From positions 1-47,478 of the forward strand of contig JADHYO010000001.1 in the NCBI GenBank assembly GCA_016782405.1: a stretch of 47,478 nucleotides of DNA, read 5' to 3'. Both the position numbers and the translations under genes were made by a program. Of this stretch, positions 1,874 to 19,959 are shown in pieces (position 1 is the stretch's first letter; each line of letters begins with the position of its first letter). Source of the DNA: Candidatus Aenigmatarchaeota archaeon (GTDB lineage: Archaea > Aenigmatarchaeota > Aenigmatarchaeia > QMZP01). Below the pieces are notes generated by a model. The model had not been told where the DNA came from and did not search any database. It was given only the letters and a program-made list of their open reading frames with translations.

Positions 1874-2176
1874 ATGCAAAAAATCTCTTGTCCCTATTGC
1901 AAGTCCAATAAAATGGTTTTCCGGGGATACCGCTACAATGAGAAGTCCAAGAAACGCCTGCGGCTCTGCAAATCCTGCGGGAGGAAGTTTACGCTCCGTA
2001 ACGTCTACTTCAGGATGCGTTTTTCCCCAGTAGAAATCAAGCGGGCAGTCTCTCTCTATAAAAAAGGATTTTCTCTAGCAGAAGCGAAGCTTCGCATGGA
2101 AAGAGAAGGAGTCAGGGTCTCTCGCTGGACAATCCTCAAATGGTACAAAAAATACACCAAACCCGAGGACCGCTAA
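1874..2176 (+). CDS. Small Zn-ribbon + HTH DNA-binding protein (IS1 InsA / transposase N-terminal-like architecture, no catalytic domain)
   Basis: 100 aa. CPYC..(22 aa)..CKSC zinc ribbon, then an HTH-like segment GFSLAEAKLRMEREGVRVSRWTILKWYKKY. Confidence 0.6.
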   Translation: MQKISCPYCKSNKMVFRGYRYNEKSKKRLRLCKSCGRKFTLRNVYFRMRFSPVEIKRAVSLYKKGFSLAEAKLRMEREGVRVSRWTILKWYKKYTKPEDR

Positions 2177-2215
2177 GTTGACAAAACAAAAACCCTCCGA
2201 AACCTGGCGATAAAC
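2170..2215 (+). repeat. Intergenic repeat family, copy 1 (overlaps the stop codon of 1874..2176)
   Basis: CCGCTAAGTTGACAAAACAAAAAC (2170-2193) matches the reverse complement of 18584-18607 at 23/24 nt. The core TAAGTTGACAAAACAAAAAC matches 7805-7823 at about 17/20 with one indel. Downstream CGAAACC is shared with copy 3. Confidence 0.7.
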
Positions 2216-3330
2216 AACTAAAACTCGGGCAATGTCCTTTTCCCCGCCCCCCAAAACACACAGCTTATTTGGCCATGTGCCTTGGGTTGTTGTCTACCCC
2301 TATAACCTAAAAACAAAAGTTCGTCGCATTCAACCATCGATTGCGGAGGGATATTTTTTGGAGCGTGGACTGGGCATGAGTGAAGAGTGATGTTTGGAAA
2401 ACTCTTTGTGAAAATGCATTTGCAGTCTACCCTCACAGAAGATAATCCTTTATTATCAATTTTACACGATCTGCCGGCCCGCACATCATTTGCAACAGAA
2501 AAAAAGGGGGAGAAAGAATCCAAATTCGAATAATAAACCGAAGCTTCATCCCCCTCCCCATCTATCAAGAACCTTCTACCTCTGTTGCGAACAAAAAACC
2601 TTTCCACCTCTTCCTTGTGTGTGGGGGGTTTTACCTCCTCGTTGTCTGTCGGCCCCTACTACTTACACCGACTCTGCGGTTGTGAAAACCACTACCATCA
2701 CTACGGCGAGAACGTCCTTTCTCCTCTTTCACCTCTGCCGTTGCTTCTCGTAGCTTTTTGTCGTCTTGCTGCGGTGGTGTGGTAGTTCTCACTCGTCGCT
2801 TCCCCATATGGGAACCCCCTATCCGATCCTCCCTTGGAAAAAATAGCCATGAGCAGTCGGGAGGACAAAACTGCCTAGGCTTAGAATAGCAACCCCTCTC
2901 CACTGAAGGGGTGCATAATATAATGCGATGTATAAAAACGGTGGGGAAGGTGTCTAATGATTAAAGCGGTTAAGTGTGTCGCAGCCAGCATGGCTGCTAG
3001 GTGGGGTATGTATAGGTGGGAAAGACACCTCCCCAACCAAATCTTGAATTCACGTTTCTAAGAAGTTCACTAGCCCCGCGCGCGGCGTTGCATACTATGA
3101 TGCACCGGGAGGGGTGGGTTGTTAGGAATCCCTGGCCGCCGCGCGCACTGTCAGACAGAATGATCGGAATGTAGTTGGTTGGGGAGACACTGTTGAATGT
3201 ACTCGAATAACTATTCCAATCAATACAGTCTTCCACCCCCCGCAGTCTCTTCCCACCTATTGTCGACTGCGATTCCACCCCACACCACCCGAGGCGAAAA
3301 GGGCATTGGTGAAAAAACTAAAACAACATC

Positions 3331-3420
3331 CTGACCCCGAGAGCAGGCCGAAAGCTTCTAAGCTCCGGGTGGAACCTGCTCACCTACAAATCAGCCTTGA
3401 AAGATTTGTAGTGGGGTCAG
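3331..3420 (+). ncRNA. Three-helix RNA module, copy R1
   Basis: P1 CTGACCCC/GGGGTCAG (3331-3338/3413-3420), P2 GAGCAGG/CCTGCTC (3341-3347/3375-3381), P3 CTACAAATC/GATTTGTAG (3384-3392/3403-3411). Paralog of 3660-3750. Confidence 0.5.
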
Positions 3421-3659
3421 GGCTCTGCCCAGTGACAGTTAAAAAATTAATTCAGCTCCAACCGCAAGGCGCGCAGAGAATGATTGCTCGCTGGAAATGG
3501 CTGGGTATTTCCAACTAGGATGAGGCCAGGTCCAGTCAAACCTGCGCGCCTTTCGCTCATGTGCCGGTGCCATATAGAGAGGTTGTAGCCCGAGAGAAAT
3601 TACCGGCACATCTTCAGCCTTCAACAAGGAAGCGCTCTTACGAGCGTTGCGTTGGGCCT

Positions 3660-3750
3660 CTGACTCCAAGAGCAGGCCGAAAGCTTCTAATCTCTCGGAT
3701 GTGTCCTGCTCACCTGCAAGCCGAGTTCGAAAAACTTGCAGTGGGGTCAC
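3660..3750 (+). ncRNA. Three-helix RNA module, copy R2
   Basis: Same architecture as R1. P1 GACTCC/GGGGTC has a U.G pair only on the + strand. P2 is identical (3670-3676/3705-3711). P3 is rebuilt with different sequence, CTGCAAG/CTTGCAG. The 21-nt block GAGCAGGCCGAAAGCTTCTAA is identical to R1. Confidence 0.5.
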
Positions 3751-3908
3751 AGACAGATGATGGTGGGTGATTGGCAGTGTGATTATCACCCGATCGTCAG
3801 AGTGTTCCAAAAGTCGGAGGGTTCCAGTGTGTATTCAAAAAGCCCCGGGTGGGGATGCGAATAGCTTGATCGGTGTCCAGACCATGTCAAGCGACTCGGG
3901 GCTGGGTT

Positions 3909-4236
3909 AAAATCAAACGATGGGGCGGGCAAAACAGTAACACAATTTTACCTCGACAGTGGTCACTCTCGTAGGTTATAATTGATTCATCATGCCCGCC
4001 CCGCAAAAATCAATGGGTGGCGGGTAAAGTAAAACCTCTCATTCAGGCTACGGTCAAATAGCCACATATCATTTGTTCTGGTGATGCAATACCCGCCACG
4101 CAAAATTCAACTGGGTAAGCGCTTCCATGGTAGGATCTAGTAGATAGACAAGACAACATCAGGAAGGCACTTACCCAGAAAAGACAATCAAGTCACCTGA
4201 TTCCTTGAGGAAAGTCTTTGAAGCTTTCCTGAGGAA
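3909..4236. repeat. Tandem array of 3-4 long hairpins separated by A-rich spacers (period about 90-96 nt)
   Basis: H1 3922-4002 (GGGGCGGGCA/TGCCCGCCCC), H2 4017-4099 (GTGGCGGGTA/TACCCGCCAC), H3 4111-4178 (CTGGGTAAG/CTTACCCAG), weaker H4 4201-4236. Spacers are AAAATCAAAC, AAAAATCAAT, AAAATTCAA and AAAAGACAATCAAG. Confidence 0.6.
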
Positions 4237-4321
4237 GAAACCATCTGCTAACAAAAAGTTTGGTTCCCTGTGGGCATTCCGAAGGAATGTCGTGCAAATG
4301 GTTTGTGAAATTGATGAAACA

Positions 4322-6316
4322 TTACTTGAAGTCAACCCGCTCAAAGTCTGCTTTCTTTGCGAACTTTTCTGGGCTGGCTATATAGACGGTTAGGGGACCT
4401 TGTTTGTATGAAAGCCTAGCGGCTTCCTGCAGAAGGACGTTCCTCACACCCTCTGTCGCGCATATGAAGTATGGGGTTTCCCTCAAACCCTCTTCTATTT
4501 TTTTTCGGTTTGTTGTGTTTTCGATGATTACAGTAAGCTTTTTATTGTTCTGCTTATATATAAGCCTTTTTCCCTCTTGATCAAACTCCCAGCCCACCCC
4601 AGTGAGGTTAGAAACAATCTCTGTTATGTCCTTGTTTGATGATGTTTCCTTCCTGGTGAAATTCTCATCAAACACCTGATCCCCATTATCTGTGAGGAAA
4701 TAGAAGTGCAGTACATTCCTTCCAGTCTTCCCGCGCTTCATACCGACCAGGCCTTGGTCAGCCAGTTTTTTAACATGCCGCTCGAATGTTTTGCCTGACA
4801 TCTTTGTTCTGGAATAAATCCTTGAAGCAAAGCTACCTTTCCCTGATCCAATTGCCTCGATAATCTTCATCCCTTGCTCACTGATTTCCTCCTGAACATG
4901 CTCCTCTGCTACTGATTCTTTCTTGCCTGAGACCTTTTCCACAATCCGGTTGCCCATGAACTTGCTGATTTCCTCATCTGTAACGATTCCCTTTTCCATT
5001 GGGAACTTTGGGAACTCAATAAGGAATGGGCTCTGGAGCGACATCCTGCAAAGTATGAAACCGTGCCCAATAGGTAGTTGCCTGAGGTAAGGGGTTTCCT
5101 CCTCTGAGAGGCCAAGCATGTTGCTGGCGTCCTGGACATCTGAGGATTGCTTTGTGTCCAGTCCAAGGTTCATGTATATATGGGTTGATGTGTTTCCCAG
5201 GGCTGGGTAAGAAACCAATGAGGGGTGCTGGTCCAGATAGATCATGCCAAGCCCAAGCTCCCTAACCTCACGGAATATCAGCTCCATCACAGTTTCAGAT
5301 CCCATTTTCTTTGCCTTATCGCGGTTGAGGACGTGATGCGCTTCTTCCAGGAAAACCACACCTGCGAGCTCTTCCTTTTTCCAGTTAACAAGCAGCCAGT
5401 CCCTTATCCACTGGAGGATGATTTCTATGAAAAAAGACTTGTCATTTGTGTCAAGTGCGTCCAGCTCCAGGATGGTTATTTTTCCTGGCCTGAAAAAATC
5501 TGATGGAAGGATACCATCCTTTACCTTAAAGACCTCTCCCACCTCTTTGAAACAGAGGCTCTCTAAAGGTCGCTCGGCAGTAGCGAGCCAGTTCCGCTCC
5601 CTTGTCGGGAGGTTTGCAGAACCATACTCGTTCAGCCACTCCTTGAGATCTTGGAGGGTGGGATTCTCATGTGACATATAAACATTGTCCATTGACTTCA
5701 AAATTATATGACGGCCACCGCCAAGCAACCAGTAGGCATGGTCAAAGATTGAAGCAAACTCCTTAATCCACTGTGACAATTGGATCCCTGGTGGGGGCTT
5801 CAATGGGTTGAATTTGAACGGGGAAACGTTTCTGCCTATGGTGAAGATTTCTATCCTGTCTCTTAACGGGGTGGAGATAAGGTCTTTATAATTTCTTTTG
5901 GAGAAGTCAAAAATAATTACAGGGATTCCCTGGTCTGACAGCTTCTCTATCAATGAATAAGCAAGGTTGGTTTTCCCATACCCTGAGGAGCCAAAAATCC
6001 CCATGTGTGAGAGGAACGTCTTCTTGTTCAAATAGAAGGGATGCATTCTCTTCCTTCCGTACAATGCCTTCCCAATCTCAACATCCCCTGGTTTTGGTGT
6101 TATTGCCGCCGGGGGCTCCCTCAAGGCTGCATCCCGCAAATCCGGGTCAGAGAAGACAGCTGCCTTGATAACATCAACCAGCTCAAAAATCCTTTTCTTA
6201 GTATCCTCATCAGCCAGGAGGTATGCTCTTCCCAGACGCTGTGCGTTTATTCTTCCTAGAACAGGAACCAGCCTCTTAATCTCCTCGGACACCAGCTTCT
6301 CCTGTGTGTCCATCAT
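4322..6316 (-). CDS. HerA/FtsK-superfamily (DUF87-like) P-loop ATPase fused to a C-terminal winged-helix domain plus an uncharacterised tail domain
   Basis: Walker A GIFGSSGYGKTNLA; Walker B-like VVFLEEAHHVL. C-terminal wHTH-like segment FASRIYSRTKMSGKTFERHVKKLADQGLVGMKRGKTGRNV. Start moved to the ATG at 6316: ATGA overlap with the upstream stop, and GGAGG lies 4-5 nt upstream. The listed 6427 start would overlap the upstream gene by 115 nt. Confidence 0.75.
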   Translation of the reverse strand: MMDTQEKLVSEEIKRLVPVLGRINAQRLGRAYLLADEDTKKRIFELVDVIKAAVFSDPDLRDAALREPPAAITPKPGDVEIGKALYGRKRMHPFYLNKKTFLSHMGIFGSSGYGKTNLAYSLIEKLSDQGIPVIIFDFSKRNYKDLISTPLRDRIEIFTIGRNVSPFKFNPLKPPPGIQLSQWIKEFASIFDHAYWLLGGGRHIILKSMDNVYMSHENPTLQDLKEWLNEYGSANLPTRERNWLATAERPLESLCFKEVGEVFKVKDGILPSDFFRPGKITILELDALDTNDKSFFIEIILQWIRDWLLVNWKKEELAGVVFLEEAHHVLNRDKAKKMGSETVMELIFREVRELGLGMIYLDQHPSLVSYPALGNTSTHIYMNLGLDTKQSSDVQDASNMLGLSEEETPYLRQLPIGHGFILCRMSLQSPFLIEFPKFPMEKGIVTDEEISKFMGNRIVEKVSGKKESVAEEHVQEEISEQGMKIIEAIGSGKGSFASRIYSRTKMSGKTFERHVKKLADQGLVGMKRGKTGRNVLHFYFLTDNGDQVFDENFTRKETSSNKDITEIVSNLTGVGWEFDQEGKRLIYKQNNKKLTVIIENTTNRKKIEEGLRETPYFICATEGVRNVLLQEAARLSYKQGPLTVYIASPEKFAKKADFERVDFK

Positions 6317-6891: not shown

Positions 6892-7056
6892 ACCCGCTCC
6901 TGTTTCCCCAGGAAAGTCATAGGGGAACCACGAAAGTCATTCCTAAGACTTTCGTTATATACTTGGGCTTCCTGTTAATAAAGGCCTCTTCACGAGGGGG
7001 TCCTCTGGATCGCGACTCGGGCATTTAGGCACCGTTAAGATGACAAAATAAAAGCC

Positions 7057-7107: not shown

Positions 7108-7804
7108 AATGGGGTGGTATTGCCCCTGGGATTTCAGAAAACCCCTGTTTTTTCGGCTGATGCAGAACTAATACAACAACTACGGAGGGATGAGAAGTCG
7201 GGTCATGAGTTTACCCCTTCAAATCAGAACGGGGGCGGAGATACTGACACCCGTAGATTCGATAGAACGCGTCGTATCTACTTGATGCTGTCCTCCTGGT
7301 GGTTTTTGCTGTCTACATTCTTCAGGACGCACTCTTTTCTTGTGCGCTTGCGGACGAATTGGTCGTCATGCGCAGCCATATGGGGGGTCCCTTTCTGGCA
7401 GTTACTGCCATCATGGGGGTTTCGTCCTGTCCCTTACCAATAGGACACACTCTGGCAATCAAGGATGGGTAAGGCACCCATATCATCAGCCCGTGTCGTG
7501 AGCTTTGGGTTCAAAACAAACCAGGAGCTGTGCCGCTAATACAGCTCCTGGCTGTCCCAGGAGAACGAAAGCCTCCCGGTTCCCGATCCCGTCTAAGTCA
7601 GACCATTGATTGGTCAAAGTCTTAGTGTATTTCAGATTCGGTAAAAATATAGCTGACAATATCCTGGGTTCTGATTTAGAATCGGGTTTACGATTCTGGG
7701 AAAAAAATTGAGTTGGAAAAACATGACATGTGTATATTTGGTCTCTGGATTTTAAATAAGTGCTTTACAAAGAATTTTCATAATTCCAAATACCTAAGCA
7801 TCTT

Positions 7805-7852
7805 TAAGGTGACAAAGAAAAACACAGGCGGCAAAAATCCTAAATGGACATT
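7805..7852 (+). repeat. Intergenic repeat family, copy 2
   Basis: TAAGGTGACAAAGAAAAACACAGGCGGCAAAAATCC aligns with the reverse complement of 18570-18604 (CTAAGTTGACAGAACAAAAACACAGGCAGCGAAACCC) at roughly three quarters identity with one indel. Same orientation as copy 1. Confidence 0.6.
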
Positions 7853-7871
7853 GTCGCCTGCGTGCAGGACC

Positions 7872-10229
7872 TTACTCGCCCACGAACTCTCCGTTTTCAA
7901 CGCTCCAGTCGTTGCCGAAGAATCCAGCGAACTTGACATTGCCATTTTCTTTGTCCAGCATACTGATATCAGCTATCACCAGGTCCGGATACCCGATCCC
8001 TGCTGTGAATATTGGAAACATTCCAGCCATCCTCATTCCCTTGGCTGTTGTGCCGGAAACAACCCCCACAAGGGATGTATCGCATCCAGGTTTTGGCCTC
8101 ACTAACAAGACAGCCAAGTCACCCGTTAACTCTCGTTTGTTTCTAACCTTTACAGTGGAGCCCACCTGCACAGGGCTTCCTCCAAGAAGCCCTTCCCAGG
8201 CAGAGTTGGTTCTGGAATTCCCGTAGAGGATGATGTTGCCATACCCTGGCTTGTACTCCTCGTCTGGGATGAGGGGGAAGTTTCCATTCCCATGGTAGAA
8301 GAAGGTTTCCTGGTGGAATCTGGCAGCTTCGAAGTTTGCCTTGCTCTCCTCATCAGAACCCTGAGTCCCATACACAAGGACAGCCTCGTTGGTAAATGCC
8401 TCCTTGAATGGGCCTGTCCGGAGTGATGATTTCTCAGACTGGGGCGGTCTCCCGGGTGACCATTTTCCACCCTTTTTGCGGAACCATGCTTTGCCAGACA
8501 CCTCAAAGGATTGTTTGTCCAGTCGGACAGTCCCGATGGCATCTACCCAGAGGGCTTGGACATTAGTTGTCGTGACCCGTGCACTGTCCCCGTCCTTGGA
8601 GGCTGTTACCTTGCTCCTTTTATGGAACTTTTTCTGCTGTTCAATCCCAACCCAGTGACACTGGGAGGAAACCCCAGGGTTTGCTGTGGTGAAGCTGATC
8701 TTCTCACCGGTTCCAATTTGTTGCTTCCTGAGGAACTTGAACATCTGTGGCCAGTTAACACATGCCATGAAAGGAATGCCATCCCTTTTCCACCGGTGGG
8801 ATGCGCCTTTCTCTTCGTGGTATTTGAGGTTAGGGTGACCCTTCAGGAGTTTCACCGCCCTCCTTGACCAGTGCACACGGACTGTTCTGTCAAGTTGCCC
8901 GTGGAGAACGTAGACAGGTGTTTTTGAGAGGTTCCCCATCCACAGCTGTTTTATCCTGCTTTGAGAGCAAGACCTCCAGAGGATTTCTCCTGTGCGGGAG
9001 GATCGAAAATTCAGTTTCGGTTCTTCAAGGTCCCAAATGGAGAGGTACCCACCCGAGGGTCCGCCCGCAGCAAACATTCCAGGATACCATGCCATGAATG
9101 CCCAGGCCCCGTGGCCGCCCATACCAAGTCCGCAGATATAAATCTTTTTCGGGTCATGGGGGAGCTGCCTCTTGGCATCTTCCAGGGCCTCGAGGACATC
9201 CAGTCGTCCCCAGTCCTCATAACTGAAACCAATGGGCCTCCTATTCATGGGTGCCACAATGTGACACCATTTCTTTCTGGGAAGCATGTCGCAGATGTCC
9301 TTTGTACCCCGGCCAGAATCGTGACATGCAACCAGGATTCCTGCCCCCTCCGGGTTCTTGGCTGGGGTGATCCTGTAACTTTGGATACTCCCATCCACTG
9401 AGCTTCTGAAGGTCTTCCTTATCACAACCCTCTTTGCTTTGGGGTTCACCACCTCCAGGGGAACCTCAAGTGAATCCAGCACCTCCTCACTGTTTTTTAA
9501 TTCCAGGTGAAGTGTTGCCTTATTCGAGGCCGGGGCCTTGATCCGGAAGGATGCCCTGGAAATGGAATGCTCGTGGATTGGGTGGATGCTGGTCTCCACC
9601 TCCCTGTCACCAACACGGGCAAGAATCTTCAATCCAGTGAGCCTATCACCAGCATTAATGATATCAACCCCGCCCCAGCCACTATATTTGCGGCCAGATA
9701 TGAGGGATGGTAGGGTTGGTTCCCACTTGGATTTGTTCACGAAGCTGAGGGACACTTCCTTCTCCACGGGCTTCAACGTTGCTTTGAACCCATTCCCTTT
9801 TCGCACAAGGAAAAGGAGGTGGTTCGTTCCCTCCTTGAGCTTTACAGGGATTGGTACTCTCCCCTCATCAGAGACACCGTAATGCGGGTTTCCCATCCTG
9901 GGCGTCCCGTTCACAAACACATGGGAGTGGCCGCCGGCCTCCAGTATCATCACCTTTTCCTGGTCAGAGTCAACTTCGAAGTGGAGGTAGCAGTCTACTC
10001 TGAACTTTTCCCCCTTCCTGATTTCTATAGGCCCCCATTCTGCACTGCCTATATCAAGCAATTTCTCATCCTTAAACAGTTTACCCTGAAGGAGACTGTG
10101 TTCCACAAGGTCCATCCGAATCTGGTTGAGGTCCTTGTAAACTCCTGCAATCGCTTCCCCTTCTACTAGGGGAATGTCTTGGCTGCTGGAAACGCCACAT
10201 AGCAGCGCCAATAAAACAATGATTCCCAT
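7872..10229 (-). CDS. Secreted multidomain protein with an alpha/beta-hydrolase (esterase/peptidase S9-like) domain; nucleophile Ser appears replaced by Gly
   Basis: Signal-like N-terminus MGIIVLLALLCGVSSSQ. Hydrolase-like region KKIYICGLGMGGHGAWAFMAWYPGMFAAGG ... PVYVLHGQLDRTV ... GASHRW. Confidence 0.65.
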   Translation of the reverse strand: MGIIVLLALLCGVSSSQDIPLVEGEAIAGVYKDLNQIRMDLVEHSLLQGKLFKDEKLLDIGSAEWGPIEIRKGEKFRVDCYLHFEVDSDQEKVMILEAGGHSHVFVNGTPRMGNPHYGVSDEGRVPIPVKLKEGTNHLLFLVRKGNGFKATLKPVEKEVSLSFVNKSKWEPTLPSLISGRKYSGWGGVDIINAGDRLTGLKILARVGDREVETSIHPIHEHSISRASFRIKAPASNKATLHLELKNSEEVLDSLEVPLEVVNPKAKRVVIRKTFRSSVDGSIQSYRITPAKNPEGAGILVACHDSGRGTKDICDMLPRKKWCHIVAPMNRRPIGFSYEDWGRLDVLEALEDAKRQLPHDPKKIYICGLGMGGHGAWAFMAWYPGMFAAGGPSGGYLSIWDLEEPKLNFRSSRTGEILWRSCSQSRIKQLWMGNLSKTPVYVLHGQLDRTVRVHWSRRAVKLLKGHPNLKYHEEKGASHRWKRDGIPFMACVNWPQMFKFLRKQQIGTGEKISFTTANPGVSSQCHWVGIEQQKKFHKRSKVTASKDGDSARVTTTNVQALWVDAIGTVRLDKQSFEVSGKAWFRKKGGKWSPGRPPQSEKSSLRTGPFKEAFTNEAVLVYGTQGSDEESKANFEAARFHQETFFYHGNGNFPLIPDEEYKPGYGNIILYGNSRTNSAWEGLLGGSPVQVGSTVKVRNKRELTGDLAVLLVRPKPGCDTSLVGVVSGTTAKGMRMAGMFPIFTAGIGYPDLVIADISMLDKENGNVKFAGFFGNDWSVENGEFVGE

Positions 10230-15344: not shown

Positions 15345-15698
15345 ATGGAAGAGGTTGCCAAATGGGTTGAAAAGGCAGAGCATGACCTAAATGCTGCTGA
15401 AGTTAACCTAAAAGAAGGTATATATGATGTATCTGCATTCTTTTCACAACAGGCTGCAGAAAAGTCGTTGAAGGCATTATATATATCGAAATATAAAGAA
15501 TTGTGGAAGATTCATGACCTATACGAATTGGCAATTAAGGTTGAAGCTCCAAAAACCATTTCTGACATTTGTGAGAAGTTGACACAGCATTATATAGCCA
15601 CAATGTATCCGAACGATGAAGAATATTCCAAGGAAGATGCAGAGGAGGCGGTTGAACAGGCAAAGAAGGTGATGAAATGGGTAAAAGAGAAATTATAG
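15345..15698 (+). CDS. HEPN-domain protein (partner of the adjacent minimal nucleotidyltransferase)
   Basis: WVEKAEHDLNAAE..FFSQQAAEKSLKAL..HYIATMYP pattern of classical HEPN (COG2250-like) proteins. Overlaps the next gene by 22 nt. Confidence 0.7.
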   Translation: MEEVAKWVEKAEHDLNAAEVNLKEGIYDVSAFFSQQAAEKSLKALYISKYKELWKIHDLYELAIKVEAPKTISDICEKLTQHYIATMYPNDEEYSKEDAEEAVEQAKKVMKWVKEKL

Positions 15699-15994
15699 AA
15701 AATGTGAAGGAGTTCAAAAAGTCTGCTGAGAAGAAGTTTGCATTAGAAAGGGTTTTCATATTTGGTTCTGCAGCCAGGGGAAAAATGAAGAAAGATAGTG
15801 ATGTTGACCTGCTTCTTGTCAGTAATAAGTTTAAAGGTAAAAAATTCTTTAAGAGGGCCATAGGTCTTAGGGCTCACTGGAAGCTTGATTGTCCTGTTGA
15901 TTTTTTGTGCTACACTCCAAAGGAGTTTGATAAATTAAGGAAAATGGTCACCATAGTAAGGGAAGCTGTCAAGGAAGGAATTGAAATAAATTAG
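15677..15994 (+). CDS. Minimal nucleotidyltransferase (MNT)
   Basis: FGSAARGKMKKDSDVDLLLV (GS..x9-11..DxD pol-beta NTase motif). Confidence 0.8.
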   Translation: MGKREIIENVKEFKKSAEKKFALERVFIFGSAARGKMKKDSDVDLLLVSNKFKGKKFFKRAIGLRAHWKLDCPVDFLCYTPKEFDKLRKMVTIVREAVKEGIEIN

Positions 15995-18540: not shown

Positions 18541-18607
18541 TGGTAATATCCATTTTTGGATATTTGAGGGTTTCGCTGCCTGTGTTTTTGTTCTGTCAAC
18601 TTAGCGG
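18541..18607 (-). repeat. Intergenic repeat family, copy 3 (inverted relative to copies 1 and 2), includes a small hairpin
   Basis: The reverse complement reads CCGCTAAGTTGACAGAACAAAAACACAGGCAGCGAAACCCTCAAATATCCAAAAATGGATATTACCA. Hairpin AATATCCA/TGGATATT at 18545-18564. Confidence 0.7.
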
Positions 18608-18641: not shown

Positions 18642-19241
18642 TCAGCCAGCTTTGGTTAAAGAGTGAATTTTCCTCTTTATTTTTTTGTGGCCCCTGACCC
18701 CTGATGTTTTTCTAATGTAAAGAGCCAGCTTTTTTTTGTTCAGGCTTCCTGCCATAGCTTTCCAAATGTCGTCAAGGAATGGATAATTGAAATAAATCAT
18801 GTCTATCAAGGTCTTTTCCAGGTCAGATACCCTCACGCTCTCACCATCCACCTTCATGGTTTCATACCCGAAGTACATTTTTCTTGAAACCCTGCGGACA
18901 ATCACTTTCCTTTCTCCAACGATTCTCTCCCCAACTTTGATTTTTTTCGGTGCCTTGGTAGTGAGTACATTTACATTCGGAATTTGGTCCCAGAAACCGT
19001 GCAGAAATGCCGCTGTCCCCAGGCCAATATACGCCTCTCCAAGGGGGACTGTTATTAAGTAAGGGGTTTCCTTGAAGGAATACCACCCCTTAATTAATGG
19101 GATTATTTTCCCCTTTTCCCTGAGCCTGTGGATAAAGACTTTGGCATACCCATTGCCCATTTCACCCTGGACCGTTTTCAGGCTGAAAACACTGGCTTTC
19201 TCCAGTTTTTCCTGGAATTTTTTGTATTTAACCCTTGGCAT
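18642..19241 (-). CDS. AbiEi-like antitoxin / wHTH transcriptional regulator
   Basis: GWYSF..YIGLGTAAFLHGFWDQIP..VSDLEKTLIDMIY pattern typical of AbiEi/COG5340 proteins. 14-nt overlap with the AbiEii-like gene. Confidence 0.65.
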   Translation of the reverse strand: MPRVKYKKFQEKLEKASVFSLKTVQGEMGNGYAKVFIHRLREKGKIIPLIKGWYSFKETPYLITVPLGEAYIGLGTAAFLHGFWDQIPNVNVLTTKAPKKIKVGERIVGERKVIVRRVSRKMYFGYETMKVDGESVRVSDLEKTLIDMIYFNYPFLDDIWKAMAGSLNKKKLALYIRKTSGVRGHKKIKRKIHSLTKAG

Positions 19242-19848
19242 ACATGTACACCTTCCTCTTTATTGTTTCAAAGTCAGGGCATTTTCCCATCAGAATGATT
19301 TCCTTAAGACCTGCAAAATCCCTTGGAACCTTGATAGGTTTTAATCCCTTCAGGTGAATATCCGCTTTGTCAAGAAGGAAGAATATGTCATACAAATCCC
19401 TTGCTTTTTTTCTCCCCTTAAAAGCATCAATCTTCTCCTGGATTAGATCCCTGGCTGACAGTGTTCCTATAATCAGGGAGTCGCCACCCACCATAAAAAA
19501 CTCACCATCAACAGGGCTGACCTTCCTGAACATTGGCGAAACCTCAACCTCAACCTCTGCCACACCATCACTGAATTTCATATAAACAACATCAGATCCA
19601 GTCACCTTCCCTTTAAGCATGGTGAAGTCTGACTTTTTGAAATGTTCCAGGATTTCTTTTGGCTTGCTGAAATAAAGGTCCAAATCATATGAGAACCTTT
19701 TCCCACCATAAACCCTCCAGATTGCTGTCCCACCATGCAGCACAACATCAAACTTCGAGAGAAGTTCAACTATCAGTTTGTCCTGGAGCTCTGCTATCTT
19801 GAGGAGCTTCCCTTTCAACAGCTTGTTAAGTGGAAATTTGGTGTCCAT
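19228..19848 (-). CDS. AbiEii/AbiGii-family nucleotidyltransferase toxin
   Basis: LHGGTAIWRVYGGKRFSYDLDLYF (GGTA..R.S.DlD motif). Start taken at the ATG at 19848 (MDTKFPLNKLL). Confidence 0.7.
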   Translation of the reverse strand: MDTKFPLNKLLKGKLLKIAELQDKLIVELLSKFDVVLHGGTAIWRVYGGKRFSYDLDLYFSKPKEILEHFKKSDFTMLKGKVTGSDVVYMKFSDGVAEVEVEVSPMFRKVSPVDGEFFMVGGDSLIIGTLSARDLIQEKIDAFKGRKKARDLYDIFFLLDKADIHLKGLKPIKVPRDFAGLKEIILMGKCPDFETIKRKVYMYAKG

Positions 19849-19959
19849 AGTATTATATATACCCAGGTTATATAAAAACATAACCCTCGTATAAAAAGCG
19901 TTCAAGTGTAGCAGAAGGGGCAGAGCGGATTGATGGAAAACTTAAAGTCTCAGTGGTTT

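Follow-up and report, generated by a model that had tools for sequence, protein, structure and literature searches.

A 2.1-kb gene-free gap at positions 2177–4321 of a 47,478-nucleotide (nt) stretch of DNA from a Candidatus Aenigmatarchaeota archaeon (contig JADHYO010000001.1; this whole stretch is called the window below) holds an array of hairpins that is real, statistically robust and recurrent in its lineage, and that belongs to no known family. Upstream of the array is an operon of two genes, one for a coiled-coil protein and one for a HerA-like ATPase, and the minus strand of the gap is the HerA-sense strand. Our tentative reading is that the gap holds minus-strand RNA stem-loops in a lineage-specific array that evolves fast and may serve serial transcription termination or 3′-end protection, a reading that we prefer while regarding it as somewhat less than probable. 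A preliminary description had presented positions 3909–4236 as an array of four units of ~80 nt. We found instead ~18 heterogeneous hairpins of 53–111 nt each, which extend over 2.1 kb and reach ~2200.

2177–4321, minus strand: whole noncoding gap tiled by ~18 stem-loops (absence of coding sequence and excess of closing stems)

Closing stems in the gap and at the same locus in relatives

The gap is the sole long gene-free stretch in the window, and its long closing stems far exceed expectation when dinucleotide shuffles are the null model. Perfect stems of at least 9 bp numbered seven, versus 0.4 ± 0.5 in shuffles. With G–U pairs allowed, stems of at least 10 bp numbered 33 on the minus strand (9.3 ± 2.9 in shuffles) and 16 on the plus, or antisense, strand (6.2 ± 2.1 in shuffles). 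Across the entire window, hairpins that combine a perfect stem of 9 bp or longer with a loop of 25–90 nt number 19, of which 7 lie within 3078–4178. This long-closing-stem statistic alone sets the gap apart; neither sliding-window folding z-scores nor local minimum-energy folds singled it out. The contig occurs in aquatic and marine metagenomes; assemblies of three independent studies contain the identical sequence, without population variants among them, and the array is therefore not an assembly artefact. The gap has no plausible open reading frame (ORF). Its ORFs look random, and tblastn and blastn searches against 160 related loci found no protein or DNA similarity, on which grounds we rejected coding potential and pseudogene remnants. 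No tRNA or tmRNA lies within the gap.

The units nearest the HerA-like gene, with their linkers, are as follows.

3841–3903, no strand assigned: H0, 10-bp stem AGCCCCGGGT/ACTCGGGGCT with one G–U pair on the plus strand (inverted-repeat search and folding)
3904–3921, minus strand: H0–H1 linker, GGGTTAAAATCAAACGAT on plus and UUUGAUUUUAACCC on minus (sequence, junction comparison)
3922–4002, minus strand: H1, 10-bp perfect closing stem GGGGCGGGCA/TGCCCGCCCC, arms 3922–3931 and 3993–4002 (folding, shuffle z)
4003–4016, minus strand: H1–H2 linker, GCAAAAATCAATGG on plus and CCAUUGAUUUUUGC on minus (sequence, direct repeat, junction comparison)
4017–4099, minus strand: H2, closing stem GTGGCGGGTA/TACCCGCCAC, arms 4017–4026 and 4090–4099 (folding, shuffle z, junction comparison with H1)
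4100–4110, minus strand: H2–H3 linker, GCAAAATTCAA on plus and UUGAAUUUUGC on minus (sequence, direct repeat, junction comparison)
4111–4178, minus strand: H3, 9-bp perfect stem CTGGGTAAG/CTTACCCAG, arms starting at 4111 and 4170 (folding, shuffle z)
4201–4236, no strand assigned: H4, weak fourth unit (folding against shuffles)

The preliminary description had recognized three clear units and a weaker one; we measured start-to-start spacings of 95, 94 and 90 nt. Its stems for H1, H2 and H3 are all present at the positions it gave, whereas its fourth unit folded no better than shuffles (z of −1.3 and −0.4 on the two strands). Against dinucleotide shuffles, the folding z of H1–H3 ranged from −4.8 to −5.3 on the plus strand and from −2.7 to −6.5 on the minus strand; that of H1 was approximately −4.9 on either strand, and H3 scored −5.3 and −6.5 on the two strands. 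The H3 stem can be extended in several ways, as a 19-nt imperfect arm, as ~17 bp with mismatches or as 12 bp with one G–U pair on the minus strand. H0 has a run of five T (T5) 3′ of it on the minus strand.

The H1 and H2 stems are unlike at two positions, each of which is compensated on the opposite arm; this upholds the earlier claim that the units are hairpins with covarying closing stems. The interior of H1 (61 nt) contains an inner hairpin. That of H2 (63 nt) is unrelated to it, the similarity between the two being at shuffle level (z of 1.2), and the H2 stem reaches 13 bp with one mismatch. Judged by sequence, H2 is a paralogue of H1 in stem and linker only. The A-rich linkers that had been called conserved are indeed present (AAAATCAA, AAAAATCAA, AAAATTCAA and GACAATCAA), and the H1–H2 and H2–H3 junctions, each taken as 3′ arm, linker and TGGGT, are identical at 23 of 27 positions. 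Tandem Repeats Finder reported no array, the outcome to be expected when units have only their ends in common. An exact-word search for the junction repeat in genome collections returned 57 scattered single matches in unrelated bacteria, which resemble chance hits.

In relatives with HerA-like proteins 55–81% identical to that of the window, the two flanking genes retain synteny, and several of their gaps are rich in hairpins. Long-stem hairpins numbered 5 versus 0.8 expected at locus L002, 3 versus 0.1 at L155 and 4 versus 0.8 at L021. Among 121 loci, hairpin density was 0.51 per kb downstream of the HerA-like gene versus 0.26 per kb elsewhere, and a run of at least four T followed 16% of the downstream hairpins on the sense strand versus 6% on the antisense strand. 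In the window and 1.26 Mb of retrieved loci together, GGCGGG…CCCGCC closes five hairpins; every one lies within this gap, and they represent four lineages (the window contributes two, and L155, L001 and L088 contribute one each). In these hairpins 4 of 10 pairs around the invariant core have changed on both sides, the share of paired cells is 92%, and the covariation score was reached by none of 500 shuffles. Because this stem recurs in the same gap and the relatives are hairpin-rich, conservation applies to the type of element and to where it lies; the sequences, except for the GGCGGG stem, are not conserved. The intergenic DNA of the relatives shows no nucleotide or protein similarity to the gap in the window, and gap length varies from 2.6 kb (L088) down to ~255 nt (L086).

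Two relatives carry hairpins with wobble pairs and T-runs. L087 has a pair of ~80-nt hairpins (7671–7751 and 7796–7879) that are 83% identical and share a 14-bp closing stem with three compensated pairs; both copies keep U–G wobbles on the HerA-sense strand and are followed by a T-run. L155 is the closest relative (81% HerA identity); it is labelled as a TA06 bacterium and is probably a mis-binned archaeal contig. At ~3930–4130 it carries three tandem GGAAUCC…GGAUUCC hairpins with wobbles and U-tracts 3′ of the HerA-like gene, and at 4593–4664 a GTGGCGGGC…GCCCGCCAC hairpin followed by TTTTGA. Separately, three Aenigmatarchaeota loci have in common a 106-nt hairpin, GGGGAGAG…CTCTCCCC, upstream of the HerA-like gene cluster (L009 2370–2475, L010 2065–2170 and L093 2765–2870), which may be an unannotated structured RNA. 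Hairpin clusters at L076, L079 and L149 consist of low-complexity A/T runs in AT-rich genomes and were set aside as not comparable.

The remainder of the gap contains the following hairpins.

2209–2298, minus strand: distal hairpin, stable on minus only (−40 versus −22 kcal/mol; folding of both strands), holding a third GGGGGGCGGGG word
2346–2451, plus strand: hairpin stable on plus only (−37 versus −22 kcal/mol; folding of both strands)
2492–2588, minus strand: hairpin GCAACAGA.../...TCTGTTGC, minus favoured (−35 versus −24 kcal/mol; folding of both strands)
2944–3034, no strand assigned: hairpin with 12-bp stem, 25-nt/25-nt symmetric internal loops and 7-bp apical stem (stem scan, folding)
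3077–3147, no strand assigned: hairpin with 10-bp perfect stem GCGCGCGGCG/CGCCGCGCGC (stem scan, folding)
3329–3422, no strand assigned: E1, 94-nt three-way junction, paralogue of E2 (folding at −45 and −48 kcal/mol, z of approximately −5)
3466–3552, no strand assigned: hairpin with 11-bp perfect stem AAGGCGCGCAG/CTGCGCGCCTT (stem scan, folding)
3559–3611, no strand assigned: hairpin with 10-bp perfect stem ATGTGCCGGT/ACCGGCACAT (stem scan, folding)
3659–3755, no strand assigned: E2, second copy of E1 (pairwise comparison with E1)

E1 and E2 are 79% identical, and three base pairs are preserved between them through two-sided changes. The gap thus has two paralogous hairpin pairs, H1/H2 and E1/E2, and its remaining units are mutually unrelated. 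The stem of the 2944–3034 hairpin begins with 8 perfect base pairs; the next position pairs as G–U on the minus strand but is mismatched on plus, and further pairs follow. A T5 run lies 3′ of this hairpin on the minus strand. The hairpins of the gap are not copied anywhere else in the window. For E1, four metagenome assemblies containing this genome yielded no additional copy, and an exact-word search found none in genome or viral collections. The hairpin interiors match no phage, plasmid or viral-contig DNA.

Serial termination weighed against other readings

In the arrangement that we favour, each module would consist of a long-range closing helix of 9–14 bp, a loosely structured interior of 33–90 nt and a short, single-stranded, U-rich linker. 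Once past the HerA-like operon, archaeal RNA polymerase would terminate partially at each successive oligo-U tract, and the helix upstream of each tract would cap the new 3′ end against 3′-to-5′ decay, yielding nested 3′ isoforms or stable hairpin RNAs. The hairpin stack may also shield the convergent InsA-like gene on the other side of the gap from read-through. The array would have grown by local duplication of units, with selection acting only on the pairing of the closing helix and on the linker while the interiors drifted to randomness; such selection would leave conserved stems and linkers around randomised interiors. Transcription, the strand used, termination and 3′-end protection are all features that we only infer.

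Several observations point to RNA on the minus strand. Runs of at least five T (T5+), which would be candidate archaeal oligo-U termination signals when they lie on the sense strand downstream of a gene, number 12 on the HerA-sense strand of the gap versus 2 on the other strand. On the HerA-sense strand, a T-run follows within ~20 nt of H0, H1, H2, H3, E1 and the hairpins at 3466–3552 and 2944–3034, in agreement with the U-rich tracts that the preliminary description had noted behind the hairpins on this strand. Together with this T5+ bias, the larger number of G–U-dependent stems on the HerA-sense strand and the wobbles of L155 and L087 argue for minus-strand RNA. The conserved stem and linker of H1 and H2 around random interiors fit a situation in which only the helix and the U-tract matter. 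The earlier suggestion of a terminator-like stack behind the HerA-like operon thus gains modestly from the T-run bias on the sense strand and from the wobble hairpins with T-runs in L155 and L087. Classical intrinsic terminators have far smaller loops.

A number of points weigh against this reading. Folding energies favour neither strand, in the core hairpins or in 87 downstream hairpins of relatives; the 2346–2451 unit folds well on the plus strand only, and the wobble of H0 is on the plus strand. Closing stems are almost wholly Watson–Crick and are compatible with DNA-level palindromes too. Archaeal termination is not known to require hairpins. The 33–90-nt loops are far beyond those of classical terminators, and structures of the classical type (GC-rich stem, 3–8-nt loop and immediate T-run) numbered 6 versus 3.7 ± 1.8 in shuffles, none of them coinciding with an array hairpin. 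The T-run bias is not reproduced in relatives and is opposite in L003. L086, a relative at 72% identity, has only ~255 nt here, and the array is therefore dispensable. With twelve oligo-T tracts, one continuous transcript of 2.1 kb is improbable, the linkers of 11–18 nt have no room for separate promoters, and the 2-kb size of the array itself argues against serial terminators.

The inverted repeats may instead act as DNA, as cruciforms or single-stranded folds that provide structural or recognition elements for neighbouring DNA-binding proteins, for replication or for DNA transfer; we consider this rather doubtful. The winged-helix domain of the HerA-like protein or the InsA-like protein would then be putative binders of GGGGCGGG duplexes or hairpins. 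Perfect Watson–Crick stems and energies without strand asymmetry are what such a role would lead one to expect, and G–T stem extensions are equally frequent on both strands. One of the compensated changes is a transversion pair (G–C to T–A), which arm-to-arm copying would generate no less readily than other changes. The word G(G/T)GGCGGG occurs seven times in the window versus 1.4 expected, with five of the seven in the gap as inverted pairs, and this G-rich word recurs in the same gap of four lineages. Winged-helix domains of FtsK-type translocases read 8-mers, which G(G/T)GGCGGG resembles. Both neighbours encode DNA-binding or DNA-translocating proteins, and the origin-associated genes oapA and oapC lie 6–8 kb away. 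However, most stems are unrelated in sequence, so one sequence-specific protein cannot read them all, and an arm spacing of 33–90 bp is long for protein dimers. The gap lacks an AT-rich unwinding element, and scans of the window found no Orc1/Cdc6, relaxase or recombinase genes nearby. The one-strand T-run bias after hairpins and the wobbles kept in both L087 copies point to RNA rather than DNA.

It is unlikely that the gap is unselected spacer, whether decayed genes or old insertions of tiny terminal-inverted-repeat elements. The inverted repeats would then have arisen, or stayed perfect, through template switching (quasipalindrome correction) or through repeated insertion at a AAAATCAA-like target. 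A gap length of 0.26–2.6 kb among relatives without conserved sequence and the dispensability of the array in L086 suit this explanation, and a mutational bias would show only here because the gap is the sole long noncoding stretch in the window. AAAAT(T)CAA-like words flank H1, H2 and H3 and are readable as target duplications of 8–9 bp, the size that IS1 produces, and the adjacent gene resembles that for the IS1 InsA protein. However, at H1 the AAAATCAA words stand apart from the inverted repeats, and no hairpin is copied elsewhere in the window. Miniature inverted-repeat transposable elements (MITEs) have terminal inverted repeats, target-site duplications on either side and many dispersed copies. 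The units have inverted ends, and E1, the unit searched for in the four assemblies, has no other copy there or in the genome and viral collections; the array is therefore probably not a dispersed MITE. Persistence of the GGCGGG stem with covariation, where HerA-like proteins are only 55–81% identical, is hard to explain without selection, and 2 kb of junk would be unusual for a streamlined DPANN genome.

We see a small chance that the gap is a previously undescribed, hypervariable stem-loop RNA array of DPANN archaea from which units would be processed, with the interior carrying guide or decoy information and the helix and U-rich linker forming an effector handle. The linker GAUUUUUGC resembles, by sequence, a putative Sm-type binding site. 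An array of this sort might be, with the same small chance, a distant analogue of CRISPR or of TIGR (tandem interspaced guide RNA) arrays that lacks their known proteins.

A closer relationship, in which the units would be guide-type small RNAs of a sort akin to stem-loop TIGR arrays or converging on them, with processing at the linkers and an effector encoded elsewhere, has only a slim chance of being correct. Stem-loop TIGR arrays, which belong to TIGR-Tas systems, consist of tandem units with variable palindromic stems and variable interiors that sometimes contain a secondary hairpin; their linkers are processing sites, and they are prevalent in reduced-genome parasites (PMC12045711; bioRxiv 10.64898/2026.09.09.750476). 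The hairpin architecture of the gap fits this description: the units are tandem, stems vary yet always pair, linkers are short, interiors are variable and may carry a secondary hairpin, CRISPR-like direct repeats are absent and the genomes are reduced. H1 and H2 combine conserved ends with unrelated interiors, and the array is hypervariable between relatives. We re-implemented the TIGR motif rule as two intervals of box C (CNA), 8–10-nt spacer and box D (YG), with a short loop between them and a directly flanking stem. No match coincided with H0–H3, E1, E2 or other hairpins, and the gap was not enriched. The array thus differs in having no CNA and YG boxes framing two 8–10-nt spacers and in its interiors, which at 33–90 nt exceed the maximum of ~43 nt in the published rule. 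It also differs in being flanked by conserved chromosomal genes rather than a mobile element. Scans of the window ORFs with Pfam, NCBIfam and PADLOC and a PDB sequence search of four unannotated window proteins, all at the sequence level, found nothing Nop- or Tas-like, and the absence of phage, plasmid or viral matches to the interiors likewise counts against guides.

Known RNA and repeat families

The preliminary description had ruled out CRISPR, and we agree. Tandem Repeats Finder found no near-identical repeats of 23–47 nt, only the H1–H2 and H2–H3 junctions are alike, pairing runs across the unit rather than inside a repeat, and Pfam and PADLOC scans revealed no cas genes. Rfam searches of the window, the gap and 14 related loci, with gathering and E-value thresholds, returned only tRNAs and sub-threshold small nucleolar RNA noise.

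Box C/D sRNAs have a C box (RUGAUGA) near the 5′ end, a D box (CUGA) near the 3′ end and a kink-turn (K-turn) by the terminal stem. AUGAUGA follows the stem only in H1 on the minus strand, where CUGU stands at the D position. We rejected this family, as the Rfam matches stayed below threshold (24 bits versus 43, E of 0.06) and the motifs were not enriched. For archaeal H/ACA sRNAs we looked for a K-turn or K-loop in the upper stem and for ACA (ANA) directly 3′ of a lower stem of ~9 bp, at a distance of ~14 nt from the pocket top. Reading of the units found no ACA after the stems on either strand and no GA/GA K-turn, the 3′ pocket strands of 16–26 nt are too long for archaeal H/ACA, and Rfam gave no match. 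The word GAGGAAAGUC at 4207–4216 on the plus strand, inside H4, matches exactly the core of the CR-I motif known from RNase P RNA; Rfam detected no such RNA at this place, and we take the word as chance.

Integron attC sites are imperfect hairpins of ~57–141 nt with conserved ends, variable centres and the same fold in arrays. The units resemble them in hairpin size, in conserved ends with variable centres and in being arrayed, but no cassettes lie between the hairpins. By reading, no RYYYAAC/GTTRRRY core sites stand at the stem ends, and Pfam scans of the window found no IntI or tyrosine recombinase. Repetitive extragenic palindromes and bacterial interspersed mosaic elements (REP/BIME) are 20–40-nt hairpins of one consensus, with hundreds of dispersed copies at extragenic 3′ gene ends, often between convergent genes, where they are thought to stabilise upstream mRNA and attenuate read-through. 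The array shares with them palindromic clusters in extragenic DNA, 3′ of genes and between convergent genes. Its units, at 53–111 nt, are mutually unrelated save for the two paralogous pairs and occur nowhere else in the 47 kb, and we rejected this family also.

Term-seq work describes consecutive oligo-U terminators in archaea that give rise to alternative 3′ untranslated region isoforms (PMC7237163). The array resembles these in its serial U-rich tracts on the sense strand downstream of a gene, with 12 T5+ runs in 2.1 kb, and differs in that hairpins are its dominant, selected feature. Archaeal terminators are not known to need helices closing 33–90-nt loops or to span 2 kb.

Neighbouring genes and significance of the array

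The genes that flank the gap are as follows.

1874–2176, plus strand: convergent gene for an InsA-like protein of 100 amino acids (aa) with a Zn-ribbon and a helix–turn–helix (profile and sequence searches)
4322–6310, minus strand: HerA/FtsK-superfamily ATPase with a C-terminal winged-helix (wHTH) domain (profile searches)

The HerA-like gene is conserved across the Aenigmatarchaeota (DPANN), and among named proteins its product best matches CedD, a DNA-translocating ATPase, at a score well under the cut-off. The InsA-like protein resembles the N-terminal part of IS1-family transposases, and its gene is syntenic in relatives. Pfam, NCBIfam and PADLOC scans of the window ORFs detected no integrase, reverse transcriptase or Nop-domain protein in addition to the missing cas genes. 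We rejected an inovirus provirus, as the ATPase gene is a syntenic chromosomal gene throughout the phylum, and a replication origin, for which an Orc1/Cdc6 gene, an AT-rich unwinding element and a shared repeat resembling an origin recognition box are all lacking.

The window has further features of its own. A gene for a PilB/T2SSE-type secretion ATPase at 78–1829 on the plus strand is split by an intein with a LAGLIDADG homing endonuclease (Intein_splicing and LAGLIDADG_3 matches). A ~25-nt motif, CCGYTAAGWTGACARAAYAAAARC, has three intergenic copies (2170–2193 on plus, 18584–18607 on minus and 7031–7056 on plus), the first of which overlaps the stop codon of the InsA-like gene, and 2177–2203 (GTTGACAAAACAAAAACCCTCCGAAAC) looks like a lone CRISPR-repeat-like word. 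Two loci are toxin–antitoxin-like: an overlapping pair at 15345–15994 on the plus strand, HEPN-like and minimal nucleotidyltransferase-like as judged by eye from the translations, and an AbiEi/AbiEii pair at 18642–19905 on the minus strand with Pfam matches. At 7872–10229 on the minus strand lies a gene for a secreted protein of 785 aa with a weak match to esterases of the extracellular polyhydroxyalkanoate/polyhydroxybutyrate depolymerase type; it is missing at the syntenic position in the closest relatives and looks like a lineage-specific insertion beside the operon.

DPANN genomes are tightly packed, at ~1 Mb, and a gene-free stretch of 2.1 kb made of selected stem-loops stands out in such a compact genome. 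The array matches no known RNA or repeat family, and of the readings weighed above, a stack of RNA modules resembling terminators is the leading candidate. Current views of archaeal termination centre on U-tracts and aCPSF1. Should the hairpins be serial terminators or 3′-end caps, they would represent hairpin-assisted transcript ending in archaea. If they are instead processed RNAs, or recognition DNA for the adjacent FtsK/HerA-like translocase, the gap would point to an RNA array not described before, or to a site of chromosome handling, in an uncultivated lineage. The importance of the region would be low if it is untranscribed and high if unit-length RNAs or an effector are found, and the locus offers a concrete target, a conserved gene pair that encloses a variable array in many metagenome-assembled genomes.

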